From: Escherichia coli
Lineage (GTDB): Bacteria; Pseudomonadota; Gammaproteobacteria; Enterobacterales; Enterobacteriaceae
Assembly: GCF_003334785.1 (NCBI RefSeq)
Contig: NZ_QOWV01000001.1
DNA length: 64,000 nucleotides
Direction: 5' to 3' (one strand)
The notes below the pieces were generated by a model. The model was not told the origin of the DNA and did not search any database. It worked only from the letters and a program-made list of their open reading frames with translations. The translations under genes were made by a program, and so were the position numbers. Each line of letters begins with the position of its first letter. Within the stretch, counting starts at the first letter, position 1. Below, in pieces: positions 10,540-34,638 of the stretch.

Positions 10540-11592
10540 TTACGGGGTAATGCCAACCGCTGCCGCCACTTTGTCGCCACTTGGCAGCGTTGCCAGAGGA
10601 TTGAAACGGAGCGCCGTTTCTAGATGATCCGGTGCCAGATGTGCGTAACGCATAGTCATTTTTATATCGTGGTGTCCGAGAATTTTTTGTAAGGCCAGAA
10701 TGTTTCCACCCGACATCATGAAGTGCGCCGCAAACGTATGGCGCAGAACGTGTGTGAGTTGACCGCGAGGGAGCACGATAGACGTTTTTTCCATCACGGA
10801 TAAAAATTGAAAATAGCAGTCTGTGAAGAAATTGAACCCATCAAGCGCCATGATCTCTTCGTAAAGCTCTTTACTGATAGGGATGCTTCTGTTTTTCTTC
10901 CCCTTCGTTCTGACAAAGGTAATTCGGTATTTGGTCACCTGTGAGCGGGTAAGATTTACGGCTTCACGCCAGCGTGCGCCTGTGCTTAAGCATATCTTAA
11001 CTACCAGTGCCAGAATTGGGTCCTGACGTTTGCAATCAGCCAGCAATTCAACAATCTGCTCATGGGTAAGCCATGCCATCTCTTTTTCTGCGATGGTGAA
11101 TTTTCGCATGTTCTCCAGTGGGTTCGGATACGACCATTCGCCCAGACGGGATAGTTCGCTAAAAACACTACTTAGATAGCTTTGCTCCAGGTTAATGGTG
11201 ACCGGGCTTGCTCCTTTCTTCCATTTCTCGCTGAAGTAGATCTCGCCTGTCAGGCGTTTATCTCGATAGTGGGCAAACATTTTAGAGGTGAGATCGGTTG
11301 CAAGAGGATTGCCCAGAGCGTCAACCATCAACAGCAATTTGTCATAGACATGCTGCCCAGCTGTCAGAGATTTACCATGTAGTTTGAACCATAGCTCAAC
11401 CACGTCTTTCAGTGTTCGACGATCCACTGATTCACCCAGCCAGGGCTTTGCTTCGGTTTCTTCCATCGTGTGGCGCTCAAAAGCCAGTGCTTCGCCTTTG
11501 GTGGCGAATTGTTTACGCACACGACGCCCACTTCGTCCGGCGGGGTAACATTCGCAAAGCCATTTCCCTGTGGTTAGTTTTCGTACTGCCAT
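10540..11592 (-). CDS. int: Tyrosine-recombinase integrase (P2/186 type)
   Basis: 350 aa starting MAVRKLTTGKWLCECYPAGRSGRRVRKQF.... The C-terminal catalytic region has TGARWREA, HVLRHTFAAH and GHHDIKMTMRYAHL (R-H-R-Y signature). It is adjacent to attL. Confidence 0.95.
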   Translation of the reverse strand: MAVRKLTTGKWLCECYPAGRSGRRVRKQFATKGEALAFERHTMEETEAKPWLGESVDRRTLKDVVELWFKLHGKSLTAGQHVYDKLLLMVDALGNPLATDLTSKMFAHYRDKRLTGEIYFSEKWKKGASPVTINLEQSYLSSVFSELSRLGEWSYPNPLENMRKFTIAEKEMAWLTHEQIVELLADCKRQDPILALVVKICLSTGARWREAVNLTRSQVTKYRITFVRTKGKKNRSIPISKELYEEIMALDGFNFFTDCYFQFLSVMEKTSIVLPRGQLTHVLRHTFAAHFMMSGGNILALQKILGHHDIKMTMRYAHLAPDHLETALRFNPLATLPSGDKVAAAVGITP

Positions 11593-11616
11593 AAAAAGCC
11601 CTCATATCAGAGGGCT
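11593..11616 (-). terminator. Hairpin plus T-run immediately upstream of the int start codon
   Basis: The minus strand reads AGCCCTC-TGATAT-GAGGGCT-TTTT-ATG(int). It is terminator-like, and its 3' arm GAGGG is also the only Shine-Dalgarno candidate for int. Confidence 0.55.
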
Positions 11617-11674
11617 AAATTTAACTGTATATGTAACCAGTAATCAATGTGTGATTACTATGAAACATACATTG

Positions 11675-13351
11675 CTAAGCAACATGTAGTTCATCGTTGG
11701 CGGAAGTGGCTGCTTTGCGCTCCTGCTCAATAGCTAGAGACTCTCTATATTCTTTCGCCTCTGCAAACATTGTCCAGTGGGCGTTGATGTTCATGTCTTC
11801 AATAACTGATTTGATTTCTTTTAAATTTACGTTAAAAAACTCTTTTCGTGAGTTAATTTTATTGACCTGCTTTTCGTTGAAAACTTTATGCAGATGGTTT
11901 TCTAATGATGGTGCATCATCACTATAAATCATCGCATGAACATCGAACGAAAAAGGAACACTAGCATCTCCGAGTTCACGAACACGATCAAGTGGTTCAA
12001 GGCGGCGTGTCATTCCAATTTTATATACATCTTCGCCAAATGAACCAATATTACTAATGATATAGACGTGGCCTGATCTGGTTTGTTGAGCCATAGAAAT
12101 AGCTCGTTGATTTTTAGCTTCAGCTTCTTCATATTTTAACTGTAGTTCAGCTATTTTTTGCTCTAAAGCTAAGCGTTGTTCTTCATTTGCAAGCATAAGT
12201 TCTTTCGTTGCTTTATTTATAGCTTGCTGAATAGCTTTTTCTTCTTTTTCAGCTTCTTTTATCGCTTTTTCATATTCTCTACGAGCTCTTTCCTCTTCAC
12301 GAAGCTGTTCTTTAATCCTTCTTTGCTCTTCTTTTTCTTCGAGCATAATTTCATTAACTGCTACACCCCATTTTAGCTCGTTGAGTCTTGCCTGAAGATA
12401 GATGTCACTTATTTTTGCGGACCTAAAGGCAGAGCCATTGTAATTTACTAGTTGAAATGCATCTTTTATTTCTTGGGAAAGTTTTCCAAAATTGTTGTGT
12501 TTGACTTTTGATAAAATACTGTCAACTCTTCCATTGAAGGCATCCAAAACAAAGTTTATGGCAGTATTACGCCTGTTTTGCTCAACATAATCACACGAAG
12601 CAGCTTTATTAGTTTTTATTAATGATTTGGTTAACTCTCTGGCTTTTTGTAATTCCTTGCCTGCATCTGTAAATTCATAATTTTCTGCCAGCTCATCAAG
12701 TACACTACGGTTAGGGATGATCCATTCATCACCATAACCTTCAATTTTATTTTTCATTGATTTTGCAACTGCTTCATATTTTTCTGCAAACTCTTTAGCT
12801 TCATATGCTGAACCAGCAATCTCCTTTGCTCTTTCTTCTGCATCAGAAATAATTTTTACTGCATTGTCATTAGCATTTGAGATTAGCTCATTTGCTTTAT
12901 TATTAGCATTATCAAGACGTTCTTTGGCTTTCAGGCGTGCATCGCGAGCGTCTTTGGTGATTGCTATAGCTTCGCTATTAGCGTTGCTTATTGTCATCTG
13001 AGCTTGATAATTTGCTTCGTTTACTGTTTTAGCCGCCTTAATTTGGGCTTCATCTATTTTTTGCTTGGCTATTGAGTCCGCATTTTTTATCTTATTCTCT
13101 GCATCCATTACTGCGCTGTGCAATTCTTCGTATTGCCACAATGGTGCTGCTCGCCCTTCAAGCTCTGATAATTCTCGTACGGTCTGTGCTAGTTTTTCTT
13201 GATTTTCAATCAGTTGGTTAGAAAGGGCTATGTTGTTAGCTGTCAGGTTATCTATAGCCGCTTTGTGTTTTTTACTTTGTTTAAATAATATTACAGCTAG
13301 AACAGGGGCGAGAAATGCTAATAAGAGTATAACGATGGCAAATGAATTCAT
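11675..13351 (-). CDS. Membrane-anchored coiled-coil protein with DUF4041-like core and C-terminal T5orf172/GIY-YIG-like nuclease domain (candidate anti-phage effector)
   Basis: 558 aa. Residues 4-23 are hydrophobic (FAIVILLLAFLAPVLAVILF) and followed by KQSKKHK. Residues ~30-200 and ~335-425 are charged heptad-like regions. Residues ~205-330 (YGDEWIIPNRSVLDELAENYEFTDAGKELQKAR...) look DUF4041-like. Residues ~428-520 (GHVYIISN..VYKIGMTRR..RVRELG..EFF) look T5orf172-like. An RBS AAAGGA lies 7 nt before the ATG, and the gene is AT-rich relative to its neighbours. Confidence 0.85.
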   Translation of the reverse strand: MNSFAIVILLLAFLAPVLAVILFKQSKKHKAAIDNLTANNIALSNQLIENQEKLAQTVRELSELEGRAAPLWQYEELHSAVMDAENKIKNADSIAKQKIDEAQIKAAKTVNEANYQAQMTISNANSEAIAITKDARDARLKAKERLDNANNKANELISNANDNAVKIISDAEERAKEIAGSAYEAKEFAEKYEAVAKSMKNKIEGYGDEWIIPNRSVLDELAENYEFTDAGKELQKARELTKSLIKTNKAASCDYVEQNRRNTAINFVLDAFNGRVDSILSKVKHNNFGKLSQEIKDAFQLVNYNGSAFRSAKISDIYLQARLNELKWGVAVNEIMLEEKEEQRRIKEQLREEERARREYEKAIKEAEKEEKAIQQAINKATKELMLANEEQRLALEQKIAELQLKYEEAEAKNQRAISMAQQTRSGHVYIISNIGSFGEDVYKIGMTRRLEPLDRVRELGDASVPFSFDVHAMIYSDDAPSLENHLHKVFNEKQVNKINSRKEFFNVNLKEIKSVIEDMNINAHWTMFAEAKEYRESLAIEQERKAATSANDELHVA

Positions 13352-13371
13352 TTTAAAATCCTTTTACTATA

Positions 13372-13968
13372 TTAATTCGAGACTATTGTACTTCTTATAC
13401 AAGCAACCACTTCAATATCAGAAAATGCACATTCAAAGCTATTCTCTGCTGTTGTAATTTTAATCATTCCTTTAGGAAGCCTTGTGATTTTTCGAATGGA
13501 ATAGGTTCCGTCGATATTGATTAACCAGTTTCCATCAAGTACTTCAGAAAATTTTTGATCACAAATGTATGTGACGAGTCCATCCTGAACAACAATTGGT
13601 GATGAAAGGTTTGCAGGAAGAAATGATGAATCGAAGACATATGAACCGTCTTCAATCATTTTGCCTGCGGCAAGGCGAAACTTAACAAGCTCTTCTGTAG
13701 CTGCTGTCAGCGAGCTTTGCTTAAGGCCTTGTCCGGTAGTTAACCATTTGAGGGAGGTTCCTGTTTCAAGAGCACATTGGATTATCCAGTCAGCAGGAAA
13801 TGTATCCCGCAAATACCTGTTCGCTAGTGTGCTTTTTGATACTTCCAAGTGATCAGCTAAAGCCTGTCGTGTCGTAAAGCCATAGGCTTCGACTAATCGC
13901 TCAATCGCAGCCTTACCACCTTTATTGGGATTTATTTTGATCTCACTTGGGTACTTTGATGTTGACAT
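13372..13968 (-). CDS. cI: Phage 186-type CI immunity repressor
   Basis: 198 aa. The N-terminal HTH region ERLVEAYGFTTRQALADHLEVSKSTLANRYLRDTFPADWIIQCALETGTSLKWLTTGQG resembles 186 CI as I recall it. It is divergent from the apl-cII early operon. Confidence 0.85.
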   Translation of the reverse strand: MSTSKYPSEIKINPNKGGKAAIERLVEAYGFTTRQALADHLEVSKSTLANRYLRDTFPADWIIQCALETGTSLKWLTTGQGLKQSSLTAATEELVKFRLAAGKMIEDGSYVFDSSFLPANLSSPIVVQDGLVTYICDQKFSEVLDGNWLINIDGTYSIRKITRLPKGMIKITTAENSFECAFSDIEVVACIRSTIVSN

Positions 13969-16118: not shown

Positions 16119-16972
16119 GCACCATCCTGAAATGGGCGGGAAATAAAACCGCCATTATGCCAGAACTGAAAAAATACCTTCCTGCTGGCCCGCGACTGGT
16201 TGAACCTTTCGCGGGTTCCTGTGCTGTGATGATGGAAACGGATTATCCCAGCTATCTGGTTGCGGATATTAATCCTGATTTAATCAACCTCTATAAAAAG
16301 GTTGCCGCTGATTGTGAATCGTTTATATCTCGCGCCAGAGTTTTATTTGAGATCGCAAACAGGGAGGTGGCTTATTACAACATAAGGCAGGAGTTTAACT
16401 GCTCAACTGAAATTACTGATTTCATGAAAGCGGTATATTTCCTGTATCTCAATCGTCACGGTTACCGTGGTTTATGTCGCTATAACAAGAGCGGGCATTT
16501 CAACATTCCCTACGGTAATTATAAAAATCCGTATTTCCCTGAAAAAGAACTTCGTACATTTGCAGAAAAAGCCCAGCGAGCAACGTTTATCTGCGCCAGC
16601 TTTGATGAAACGCTGGCGATGTTGAAGGCGGGAGATGTGGTGTATTGCGATCCGCCATATGACGGTACGTTTTCCGGCTATCACACTGATGGTTTCACTG
16701 AAGATGACCAGTATCACCTGGCATCCGTTCTTGAACATCGGTCATCAGAAGGACATCCGGTCATTGTTTCTAACAGTGACACATCCCTGATCCGTTCGCT
16801 GTATCGCAATTTTACTCACCACTATATCAAGGTAAAACGCAGCATCGGTGTGGCAGCTGGCGAGGGTAAATCAGCAACAGAAATCATTGCTGTTTCCGGG
16901 CCGCGCTGCTGGATGGGATTTGATTATTCGCGTGGCGTGGATAGTTCTGCCGTGTACGGAGTACGTGCATGA
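16115..16972 (+). CDS. dam: Prophage DNA adenine methyltransferase (Dam family)
   Basis: 285 aa from ATG 16115 (ATGA overlap with the upstream stop). It has [23 protein letters not shown], the SAM motif EPFAGSCAV and the catalytic DPPY (VYCDPPYDG). Confidence 0.9.
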
Positions 16973-33906: not shown

Positions 33907-34638
33907 TTACTGTGGGAACCACTGGTCACTGATTTTTTGATAAGTACCGTCAGCTTTAATTGCTGCCAGCGCGTTATTCAGTTTTTCCAGCAGGGCTTTG
34001 TTATCCGGACGTACAGCGATGCCCAGGCCGGTGCCAAAATATTGCGGATCGGTCACTTTCTCAGTAGCAACACCAAGTTGTGGATTGGTTTTCAGCCATT
34101 CGTTTACCACCGCTGTGTCACCAAATACCCCATCAATACGACCATTTTTCAGATCGATAAAGGCATTCTGATAACTGTCATAAGAGACAGTTTTCACTTC
34201 CGGGTGCTGATCCTGAATATATTTCTGGTGCGTAGTACCGTTTTCCATCCCAATACGTTTGCCTTTCAGATCGGCAAACGTTTTGTAGGTATCTTTTTTG
34301 GCAATCACGACGGCTGAGTTTTCATAGTAGGGCGTGGTAAACGATACCTGTTTGCTACGCTCCGGGGTGATATCCATACCGGAGATTACGGCGTCATATT
34401 TTCTGAATTTCAGGGACGGGATCAGGCTGTCGAACGCGTGATTAGTAAAAGTACATTCTGCCTGCATTTGTTTGCACAAGGCTTTTGCCAGATCGATATC
34501 AAAGCCGACAATCTCATTATTAGCACCTATAGATTCAAAGGGTGGATAGGTGGCTGAAACGCCAAAATTGATTTTCTCTGCGGCAGAAGCACCGAAAGTA
34601 AAGGAAGCAAGTAAAGCGGCAAGAACTAACTTTTTCAT
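33907..34638 (-). CDS. artJ: Arginine-binding periplasmic protein ArtJ
   Basis: 243 aa from ATG 34638 (MKKLVLAALLASFTFGASAAEKINFGVSATYPPFES...). It is a paralogue of artI. Confidence 0.95.
   Translation of the reverse strand: MKKLVLAALLASFTFGASAAEKINFGVSATYPPFESIGANNEIVGFDIDLAKALCKQMQAECTFTNHAFDSLIPSLKFRKYDAVISGMDITPERSKQVSFTTPYYENSAVVIAKKDTYKTFADLKGKRIGMENGTTHQKYIQDQHPEVKTVSYDSYQNAFIDLKNGRIDGVFGDTAVVNEWLKTNPQLGVATEKVTDPQYFGTGLGIAVRPDNKALLEKLNNALAAIKADGTYQKISDQWFPQ

Follow-up and report, generated by a model that had tools for sequence, protein, structure and literature searches.

[quoted passage not shown] The window, which is the whole 64,000-nucleotide stretch of E. coli DNA that was analysed (contig NZ_QOWV01000001.1, assembly GCF_003334785.1), contains a prophage that, from its RefSeq context, adjoins rcdA as its integration site. 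This prophage is a deletion remnant in which gpA is fused to a tape-measure-like C-terminus. The cI gene and its promoter region are intact. Intact prophages, and also vB_EcoM-813R9, a phage record that was deposited as a partial genome, contain copies of the open reading frame of interest, of cI and of int with 100% identity to those of the window. An earlier note, made from the letters alone, had placed a 558-aa reading frame 20 nt after cI and 82 nt before int, and these values are exact. It had also described the two genes as adjacent in phage 186, where the start of int does abut the stop of cI. Its impression of a compositionally distinct gene was likewise sound: the GC content is 0.34-0.38 over positions 11600-13100 (~35% in the cargo gene) as against 0.47-0.51 in int. 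Within cI it is 0.43-0.44 in the 5' half and 0.32-0.37 in the 3' half, the latter being AT-rich as well. The features of the locus are collected in Table 1.

Table 1. Positions in the window of the cargo gene, its encoded domains and its neighbours.
Feature	Coordinates	Strand	Details
Conserved int-proximal backbone element, right edge of cargo slot	11593..11660	-	Locus alignments
P2-type tyrosine integrase gene	10540..11592	-	350 aa; Pfam Int_N, Phage_integrase
SNIPE / PD-lambda-1 family gene	11675..13351	-	558 aa, ATG start; identical to RefSeq WP_021574262.1
Predicted single TM helix, residues 4-23 (FAIVILLLAFLAPVLAVILF)	13283..13342	-	Kyte-Doolittle
Long helical, coiled-coil-like stalk, residues 24-204	12740..13282	-	AlphaFold2 helices
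Globular DUF4041 ("SNIPE associated") domain, residues ~208-315	12407..12730	-	AlphaFold2; Pfam core 267-322 at nt 12386-12553
Highly charged linker helix, residues 316-425	12077..12406	-	AlphaFold2 helices 316-387, 390-425
GIY-YIG-type (T5orf172/MUG113) nuclease domain, residues 427-520	11792..12073	-	Pfam; E484 codon 11900-11902
cI-cargo spacer, 20 nt	13352..13371	-	Shine-Dalgarno AAAGGA 7 nt 5' of ATG
186-type CI repressor gene	13372..13968	-	198 aa; Pfam Phage_CI_repr 8.2e-32, Phage_CI_C 3.5e-27

By its sequence the cargo protein is a member of the SNIPE family of membrane-anchored nucleases, which cut incoming phage DNA. The family was described as PD-lambda-1 (Vassallo 2022, PMC9519451) and renamed SNIPE by Saxton et al., Nature 2026 (PMC13190303). 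Three Pfam profiles match above their gathering scores, namely DUF4041 (PF13250, residues 267-322, E 3.1e-12, scoring 46.6 bits where 27 are required), T5orf172 (PF10544, residues 427-520, E 3.2e-17) and MUG113 (PF13455, residues 443-520, E 3.7e-20). The PADLOC PD-Lambda-1 model PDLC03976 is matched over nearly its full length (E 2.4e-120), its positions 36-481 out of 491 aligning with residues 106-550 of the protein. A second PADLOC model, PDLC03977 (E 7.9e-117), and PHROG 1847 (E 6.6e-133, residues 6-547) match too; NCBIfam returned sub-threshold coiled-coil matches only. Together with the alignment to a tested homologue and the conserved glutamate described below, these matches bear out the proposal in the earlier note of a membrane-anchored DUF4041 protein with a T5orf172/GIY-YIG nuclease related to SNIPE, and the Pfam and defence-system searches it had suggested came out in its favour. 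The gene is already recognised by PADLOC and by RefSeq PGAP, which names the identical protein "SNIPE associated domain-containing protein"; it is known biology of low novelty. The SNIPE family comprises 1,409 clusters at 50% identity (E <= 1e-30). Homologues of the cargo protein that are 82-100% identical occur in Escherichia, Citrobacter, Salmonella, Klebsiella and Enterobacter, none of them truncated. WP_021574262 and WP_022645415 do not appear in the accessible part of the supplementary text of the SNIPE paper (PMC13190303; 474-homologue set).

The architecture of the protein begins with a hydrophobic helix at residues 4-23, as the earlier note had read it. This is the sole 19-residue window with a Kyte-Doolittle mean above 1.6 in the protein (3.16), and among 117 related representatives with 450 aa or more, 102 have a segment of this kind. 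The orientation assigned to it in that note, with the N-terminus inside, is not the one predicted. Four lysines within seven residues (K24, K27, K28 and K30) directly follow the helix, and the positive-inside rule therefore predicts an N-out/C-in topology, which leaves most of the protein on the cytoplasmic side. This topology has been established experimentally for SNIPE (PMC13190303). The stalk gives weak matches to ATP-synthase-b, V-ATPase-E, DivIVA and PspB-like profiles (NCBIfam, Pfam), and the N-terminal region falls in the "TM + ATP-synthase-b/DivIVA/PspB-like" kind, which is among the commonest SNIPE N-terminal types (PMC13190303).

An AlphaFold2 model built from 70 aligned sequences, each representing a 50%-identity cluster, has a mean pLDDT of 83.7, rising above 90 over residues 220-340. 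Three helices (2-72, 75-179, 181-204) lead into a globular region at ~208-315, after which come a helix at 316-425 and, at 427-530, a beta/alpha domain, in agreement with the boundaries drawn beforehand by eye (coiled coil ~30-200, core ~205-330, charged coil ~335-425, nuclease ~428-520). A model based on 23 close homologues (82-100% identity) was unusable, with a mean pLDDT of 54 and values below 50 in the globular domains. In the nuclease domain, Y430, G446, R449, R450, E484 and N497 do not vary among 70 homologues with 33-85% identity to the cargo protein, and the same holds for F272 of the DUF4041 domain. The top Foldseek match in the PDB is the GIY-YIG nuclease Slx1 (probability 0.90), at an E value (0.21) that is not significant, and a sequence search of the PDB gave no match at E <= 1.

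The experimentally characterised SNIPE (RCP76574.1 / XSB42081.1), from phage PhiR26_1 of E. coli ECOR26, provides the reference for function. It is membrane-localised, associates with tape measure protein and cleaves DNA during injection, providing a direct, non-abortive defence against lambda and siphoviruses (PMC13190303). BLASTP aligns the C-terminal 293 residues of the cargo protein (about 265-555) to it with 50% identity (E 5e-77). Identity is ~74% (70/94) in the nuclease domain, where the catalytic E414 of SNIPE aligns with E484, 46 of 95 residues in the linker helix, and ~28% (18/65) in the DUF4041 Pfam core. Over residues 1-264, pairwise alignment was at noise level (47/195 identical), with no detectable sequence similarity; the N-terminal build of one TM helix followed by long helices is nevertheless common to both. 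The cargo protein has 558 aa against 500 aa, its stalk being ~70 residues longer. Because homology to ECOR26 SNIPE is detectable from residue 265 onward only, the alignments place the cargo protein in a diverged subclade of the family and not as an orthologue of the tested protein. Two positions that tune tape-measure binding also differ, SNIPE E223 corresponding to S292 and W257 to K327; in SNIPE, the substitution W257R boosted tape-measure binding (PMC13190303). Since residues 1-264 and a large part of DUF4041 are unlike the tested protein, the target range, the partner proteins (possibly ManYZ) and the direct or abortive outcome could differ from those of ECOR26 SNIPE.

It is highly probable, in our view, that the reading frame encodes a direct-defence nuclease of the SNIPE (PD-lambda-1) family. 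In the mechanism envisaged, membrane localisation, cleavage during injection, tape-measure binding and siphovirus specificity are carried over by analogy from the ECOR26 homologue (PMC13190303). The single TM helix would anchor the protein in the inner membrane, leaving three residues in the periplasm, and ~200 residues of long helix would serve as stalk or adapter. On the cytoplasmic side, the DUF4041 domain would bind DNA and the tape-measure or injection apparatus of incoming siphoviruses, and the helix of ~110 residues would position the C-terminal GIY-YIG nuclease (Y430, Y443, R449/R450, H472, E484, N497) to cut phage DNA as it is being injected. Sequestration of the nuclease at the membrane would spare the host chromosome.

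The cI-int interval is a variable cargo site in this prophage lineage. Among 5,426 complete E. coli genomes, 1,118 (~21%) have the integrase family of the prophage and 165 have the cargo gene. Only ~15% of E. coli prophages with the window-type integrase carry this gene, and more than ten alternative cargos, other defence systems among them, are found in the slot; it is variable cargo, as the earlier note had supposed, and not a conserved core gene. Among loci whose integrases are >90% identical, cI-to-int gaps span 1075-3036 nt and no fewer than 12 different gene contents occur. Where the integrase gene is 95-98% identical in DNA, the E. coli genomes sampled have a gap of ~395 nt, and the survey of slot contents found a 63-aa gene in ~590 E. 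coli genomes. The expectation that genes in this position serve defence is supported by sister prophages, which carry HEC-01 A/B (PADLOC, E 3.8e-208 and 7.3e-75), the candidate systems PDC-M11 A/B (PADLOC, E 1.1e-133 and 8e-49) and PDC-M18 A/B, or an OLD/AriA/GajA-like ATPase of 662-666 aa; some other occupants are without any nuclease. The OLD-like cargo was seen in IMG/VR loci, and complete E. coli genomes all but lack it; the slot survey therefore mixes species. Other cargo types are coupled to cI as tightly (0-25 nt), and cI alleles co-vary with cargo type. The interval thus fits the definition of a defence hotspot that Rousset 2022 gives for prophages, being short, variable, situated between conserved genes and occupied by alternatives that include known or candidate defence systems. 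The earlier note had not known it as a described hotspot; cI-int or int-proximal hotspots have in fact been published for P2-related phages (Rousset 2022, PMC9122126; NAR 2026, PMC13586616).

On its int side the slot is bounded by a conserved element. This contains a promoter-like sequence, TTGAyy/17 nt/TTAAAT, whose spacer is a LexA-box-like palindrome, ACTG-N10-CAGT (11624-11641), followed by a 7-bp GC hairpin and T-run (11597-11616), the 3' arm of which, GAGGG, is the Shine-Dalgarno sequence of int. All 21 loci in the alignment, which cover every cargo type, have the palindrome unchanged. A reading of it as RNA structure was rejected, since it is invariant and without covariation, as would be the case for a protein operator. 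On a tentative reading, the hairpin would insulate the cargo from int and sequester the int Shine-Dalgarno sequence, and int would have its own LexA-box promoter, making it an SOS-wired integrase. A literature search returned nothing directly relevant on LexA-controlled int in P2-like phages, and no description of this promoter-like, LexA-box-like and hairpin element.

Expression of the cargo gene can be considered in this light. It had been proposed to lie inside a cI-to-int transcription unit, and its position downstream of cI agrees with this, but the terminator-like hairpin separates it from int; the cI transcript therefore probably ends with this gene. It is the spacing that suggests transcription together with cI, and a scan of the 20-nt cI-cargo spacer matched neither a terminator nor a promoter. 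Placed immediately after the repressor gene, the AT-rich cargo would probably be translated from the constitutive lysogenic (pL) transcript. As it would share that transcript with the repressor, every lysogen might be guarded against competing phages, including the one that harbours the deletion-remnant prophage of the window.

A wider reading joins these strands, and is offered tentatively as having a lesser though real chance of being correct: the long-stalk subclade may have a different target range or partner, and the cI-int interval may be a dedicated, repressor-coupled site for defence cassettes with an SOS-wired int. The unrelated N-terminal half, K327 at the W257 position and S292 at the E223 position are the grounds for regarding the subclade as a specificity variant. 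No description of a repressor-coupled cassette site with a LexA-box-driven int was found in a literature search. If the wider reading is true, long-stalk SNIPE is a natural specificity variant for dissecting the recognition of injection complexes.

Other explanations have to be weighed. The protein could be a membrane-anchored abortive-infection or superinfection-exclusion factor. It would then detect or obstruct injection, or kill the infected cell through cuts in host DNA, and not selectively cleave the DNA of the incoming phage. Its N-terminal half and DUF4041 surface are unlike those of the tested SNIPE, many repressor-adjacent genes work by exclusion, and removal of the TM helix turns SNIPE into a toxic protein that cuts the chromosome (PMC13190303), making abortive infection by release of the nuclease conceivable. 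However, there is no sign of a release or activation module, and the close match of the nuclease domain and the identical overall architecture point to a direct, non-abortive defence, so that this explanation is unlikely. Somewhat less plausible is that the gene is an intact-looking but silent passenger of a decaying prophage, unexpressed or silenced by H-NS, and with no current role. The state of the prophage and the low GC content of the gene would fit, and an AT-rich gene of this kind could be silenced by H-NS; against this, cI and its promoter region are intact, the three genes are identical to those of intact prophages and vB_EcoM-813R9, and the protein has been kept without truncation across five genera.

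The cassette-like turnover at the slot, along with the occurrence of T5orf172 and GIY-YIG domains in homing endonucleases, might suggest that a selfish homing-type or mobility gene, and not phage recombination, drives exchange. This is very improbable, given that the protein has a membrane anchor, an extended stalk and DUF4041 but no recognisable homing-endonuclease DNA-binding module, that other slot occupants have no nuclease, and that cI alleles co-vary with cargo, as expected of recombinational module exchange. GenBank phage records (ON470620, OM835953 and Marinitoga viruses) give the product name "chromosome segregation ATPase", and there are weak coiled-coil matches to SMC, JetC and LmuB. 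The SMC-type matches fall well short of the cut-off and cover coiled-coil segments only, and Walker A and Walker B motifs are absent. An SMC-like structural protein is refuted at the sequence level and can be given practically no weight, and this annotation was rejected.

The SNIPE-family assignment shows that a sequence-only reading was enough to recognise a recently described mechanism, in which a membrane-tethered nuclease discriminates spatially between self and non-self. The cargo gene itself adds little, since existing annotation already labels it. The value lies instead in a naturally occurring, diverged family member with which SNIPE specificity can be studied, in a quantified cI-int defence hotspot in a prophage lineage found in about a fifth of complete E. 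coli genomes, and in a conserved int-proximal regulatory element that marks the slot boundary.

Like ECOR26 SNIPE, the system is a single gene, prophage-borne and AT-rich, whose product runs from a TM helix with a basic cluster through a helical stalk and DUF4041 to a long charged helix and a GIY-YIG/T5orf172 nuclease. The carriers differ, ECOR26 SNIPE lying between ren and the nin region of a lambdoid phage and the present gene between cI and int of a 186-like myovirus prophage. As in the published hotspots, the slot is a small AT-rich locus between conserved phage genes with a high turnover of known or candidate defence systems, and its position beside repressor and integrase agrees with the K139-like hotspot. 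It differs from them in belonging to an rcdA-integrating, 186-like lineage of Enterobacteriaceae, in the close translational coupling of its cargo to cI, and in the conserved element on its int side. The rexAB genes of lambda adjoin cI, and P2 has the exclusion genes old, tin and fun. These resemble the SNIPE cargo in being expressed in the lysogen and protecting against heterologous phages, but they belong to unrelated families with other mechanisms, RexAB being abortive and SNIPE direct. Zorya and Kiwa, like SNIPE, are inner-membrane defences active at genome injection (PMC13190303), although they are multi-gene systems of unrelated proteins without DUF4041 or T5orf172.

By its sequence, the gene between cI and int belongs to the SNIPE/PD-lambda-1 family, of which it is a diverged yet typical representative; both PADLOC and RefSeq already label it so. 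The DUF4041 and T5orf172/MUG113 domains claimed in the earlier note are borne out by Pfam, with all three matches above gathering score: MUG113 at residues 443-520 (E 3.7e-20), T5orf172 at 427-520 (E 3.2e-17) and DUF4041 at 267-322 (E 3.1e-12). The PADLOC model PD-Lambda-1 aligns residues 106-550 to positions 36-481 of its 491 (E 2.4e-120), and PHROG 1847 is matched at E 6.6e-133. The RefSeq protein WP_021574262.1 is named 'DUF4041 domain-containing protein', newer annotations reading 'SNIPE associated domain-containing protein'. The first observation and its interpretation were essentially right, save for topology and operon detail. The interest that is left lies in how the cI-int cassette site is built and in the possibly different specificity of this variant.

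The ORF lies exactly where it had been placed, 20 nt from cI and 82 nt from int, and its AT-richness is upheld by a GC content of 0.34-0.38, against 0.47-0.51 in int; the 3' half of cI is AT-rich too. The chromosomal flank of the prophage is rcdA/ybjJ of E. coli.

Features of the prophage remnant, in window positions
Feature	Position	Strand	Description
int	10540..11592	minus	P2-type integrase (Pfam)
int-proximal element	11593-11660	minus	~65 nt, directly upstream of int
SNIPE-family ORF	11675..13351	minus	558 aa, ATG start
cI	13372..13968	minus	186-type CI; Phage_CI_repr 8.2e-32, Phage_CI_C 3.5e-27 (Pfam)
gpA-tape-measure fusion ORF	16969-20073	plus	1034 aa

In phage 186, the int start abuts the cI stop and the lysogenic operon runs pL-cI-int-orf69-terminator; the 1.7-kb gene between them is thus an insertion relative to 186. 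In most cargo types the first gene follows the cI stop by 0-25 nt and is preceded by a Shine-Dalgarno sequence of its own; for the gene here this is AAAGGA, placed 7 nt ahead of the ATG. A sequence scan of the interval from cI to the gene matched neither a promoter nor a terminator and, given the tight spacing, co-transcription with cI from the lysogenic promoter is the simplest reading. Expression of the gene would then go along with that of the prophage repressor, even in the defective remnant of the window.

On the int side, the int-proximal element is common to all cargo types (as in loci L004, L005 and L007-L124) and to the cargo-free relative ESSI2_ev129. Its promoter-like part reads TTGAyy / 17 nt / TTAAAT, the spacer being an ACTG-N10-CAGT palindrome which is invariant in 21/21 sequences, with no covariation, and which fits the LexA-box core CTG-N10-CAG. 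The palindrome has one other match in the window (34174-34191), where 0.56 would be expected by chance. A 7-bp GC hairpin and a T-run follow, ending at the int ATG; these scored as terminator-like, and the 3' arm of the hairpin, GAGGG, serves as the Shine-Dalgarno sequence of int. The hairpin may end or occlude read-through of the cI-cargo transcript, and the arrangement suggests that int is insulated, with its own promoter, possibly SOS-regulated. Thus, where the earlier note set the gene inside a cI-to-int transcription unit, it is better read as the probable last cistron of the cI transcript.

The SNIPE-family gene is cargo of the cI-int slot and not a core gene. Of the 5,426 complete genomes of E. 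coli, 1,118 have the integrase family, and just 165 of these carry the gene; in about 590 of the others a 63-aa 'YdcA family' gene occupies the slot instead. A survey of 118 loci, retrieved through cI from GTDB representative genomes and IMG/VR, showed the cI-int gap to vary from 1075 to 3036 nt where the integrases share more than 90% identity. At least 12 kinds of AT-rich cargo occupy the slot (in loci including L085-L124, L041 and L004), each with its first gene on the cI strand. They include HEC-01 A/B, PDC-M18 A/B, PDC-M11 A/B with an extra gene, an OLD/AriA/GajA-like ATPase (662-666 aa), a Tle1-like hydrolase (394 aa), an ATP-grasp-like protein (339 aa), a membrane protein (359 aa) and proteins of 323, 334, 349 and 381 aa without a family match, the unknowns among them being candidate defence genes. 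GC content is 31-39% throughout, the sole exception being locus L124 (49%), because a putative group II intron reverse transcriptase gene (495-aa minus-strand ORF) is inserted there. In some Raoultella, Citrobacter and other prophages (L010, L013, L011, L083) a second gene lies between SNIPE and int. It encodes an unknown protein, either of 309 aa on the same strand as SNIPE or of 286 aa on the other strand, or else a DUF559/REase_MTES_1575 protein of 320 aa; such genes may work together with SNIPE or be cargo in their own right.

Identity to the cI of the window falls in step with cargo type, from 80-100% with SNIPE through 74-81% with HEC-01, PDC-M18 and others to 48-66% with OLD-like, PDC-M11 and the remaining types, while the integrase stays more than 90% identical. 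Immunity and cargo thus seem to be exchanged together, as a single module. The slot is a known type of hotspot: besides the gpA-portal and Z/fun sites of P2-like phages (Vassallo 2022, PMC9519451; Rousset 2022, PMC9122126), cI-int or int-proximal ones have been published for P2-related phages (PMC9122126; NAR 2026, PMC13586616); no description of its enterobacterial rcdA lineage, or of the int-side boundary element, was found in the literature searched. The classical P2 gpA-portal hotspot is also filled in intact relatives, with ParA and a SIR2-family protein in L001 (29940-31816), an intact 186-like prophage, and an 'ABC-three component system' in L125 (12864-15815), so that such prophages have two cargo loci.

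The prophage in the window is a deletion remnant, whose homology to L001 ends at 18270. The fusion ORF starts with about 435 residues from the N-terminus of replication protein gpA (the Phage_GPA match breaks off at profile position 244/321) and continues in frame into a C-terminal part that resembles a tape-measure protein. Next come genes the size of gpU and gpD; the prophage lacks its replication and head genes and most of those for the tail. The 165 genomes share an identical 3.9-kb int-gene-cI segment, and the SNIPE-family gene occurs in intact 186-like prophages such as L001 and in the phage records vB_EcoM-813R9 (a partial genome with host flank still attached) and Klebsiella phage KP12. 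Homologues of the same length, 82-85% identical, are found in Citrobacter, Salmonella, Klebsiella, Raoultella, Enterobacter and others, and the cI-gene-int order recurs in six further taxa found through cI. The wider family comprises 1,409 50%-identity clusters at E <= 1e-30. At the DNA level, the linker and nuclease region (11675-12600) is 69-70% identical to its counterparts in viruses that infect Thermotogota (Marinitoga camini virus 2, Marinitoga phage MPV1) and cyanobacteria (Synechococcus phages); for the proteins the figure is 52-55% over 73-89% of the length, a cross-phylum conservation that is unusually high for a defence gene.

The only segment hydrophobic enough for a transmembrane helix is residues 4-23 (Kyte-Doolittle 3.16), as the earlier note had it, and 102 of 117 near-full-length family representatives have such an N-terminal segment. 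The 'N-in' orientation proposed there is contradicted: the basic cluster directly following (K24, K27, K28, K30) predicts, by the positive-inside rule, an N-terminus outside and the remainder in the cytoplasm. An AlphaFold2 model (mean pLDDT 83.7) has helices at 2-72, 75-179 and 181-204, then a globular domain predicted with good confidence (~208-315), a further helix (316-425) and a beta-beta-alpha-beta-alpha domain (427-530). The N-terminal region weakly matches ATP-synthase b, V-ATPase E, DivIVA and PspB. SNIPE-family genes in the GenBank phage genomes ON470620, OM835953, KP836356, OZ018341 and MW221967 are labelled 'chromosome segregation ATPase'; as the window protein has no Walker motifs, this label is a coiled-coil artefact.

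PD-lambda-1 was discovered by functional selection, its source being ECOR26 (RCP76574.1, 500 aa; Vassallo 2022, PMC9519451), and has since been renamed SNIPE (Saxton 2026, PMC13190303). The ECOR26 protein has an N-terminal transmembrane helix with a periplasmic N-terminus, in agreement with the topology predicted here, and cytoplasmic DUF4041 and GIY-YIG domains; DUF4041 binds DNA, and defence is lost with E414A or deletion of DUF4041, while the form lacking the helix is toxic and cuts the chromosome (Saxton 2026, PMC13190303). It associates with ManYZ and tape-measure proteins and cleaves lambda DNA during injection, acting within the BASEL set on siphoviruses and not on myo- or podoviruses (PMC13190303). 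By analogy with this published mechanism, the window protein most likely acts as a membrane-tethered GIY-YIG nuclease that would cut siphovirus DNA at the injection site. The SNIPE N-terminal region was concluded to be hypervariable and probably an adapter, the commonest matches in transmembrane homologues including ATP synthase subunit b, DivIVA and PspB (PMC13190303, Supplementary Table 3).

Compared by BLASTP with the tested SNIPE, taken from phage PhiR26_1 (PV340555; annotated 'PD-lambda-1'), the window ORF is 50% identical over residues 265-555 (196-487 in SNIPE; E 5e-77), with no similarity upstream of residue 265. Identity is graded along the protein, at 70/94 aligned residues in the nuclease, 46/95 in the linker helix, 18/65 in the Pfam DUF4041 core and a noise-level 47/195 over the N-terminal 195 SNIPE residues. 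Across 70 homologues, 33-85% identical to the window protein, F272, Y430, G436, G439, G446, T448, R449, R450, E459, P466, F467, F469, E484, N497 and F506 are invariant and H472 and E504 nearly so; as aligned, this is the GIY-YIG catalytic set. E484 is the counterpart of SNIPE E414 (PSLE motif). At the tape-measure-tuning positions the two proteins differ, SNIPE E223 and W257 being replaced by S292 and K327.
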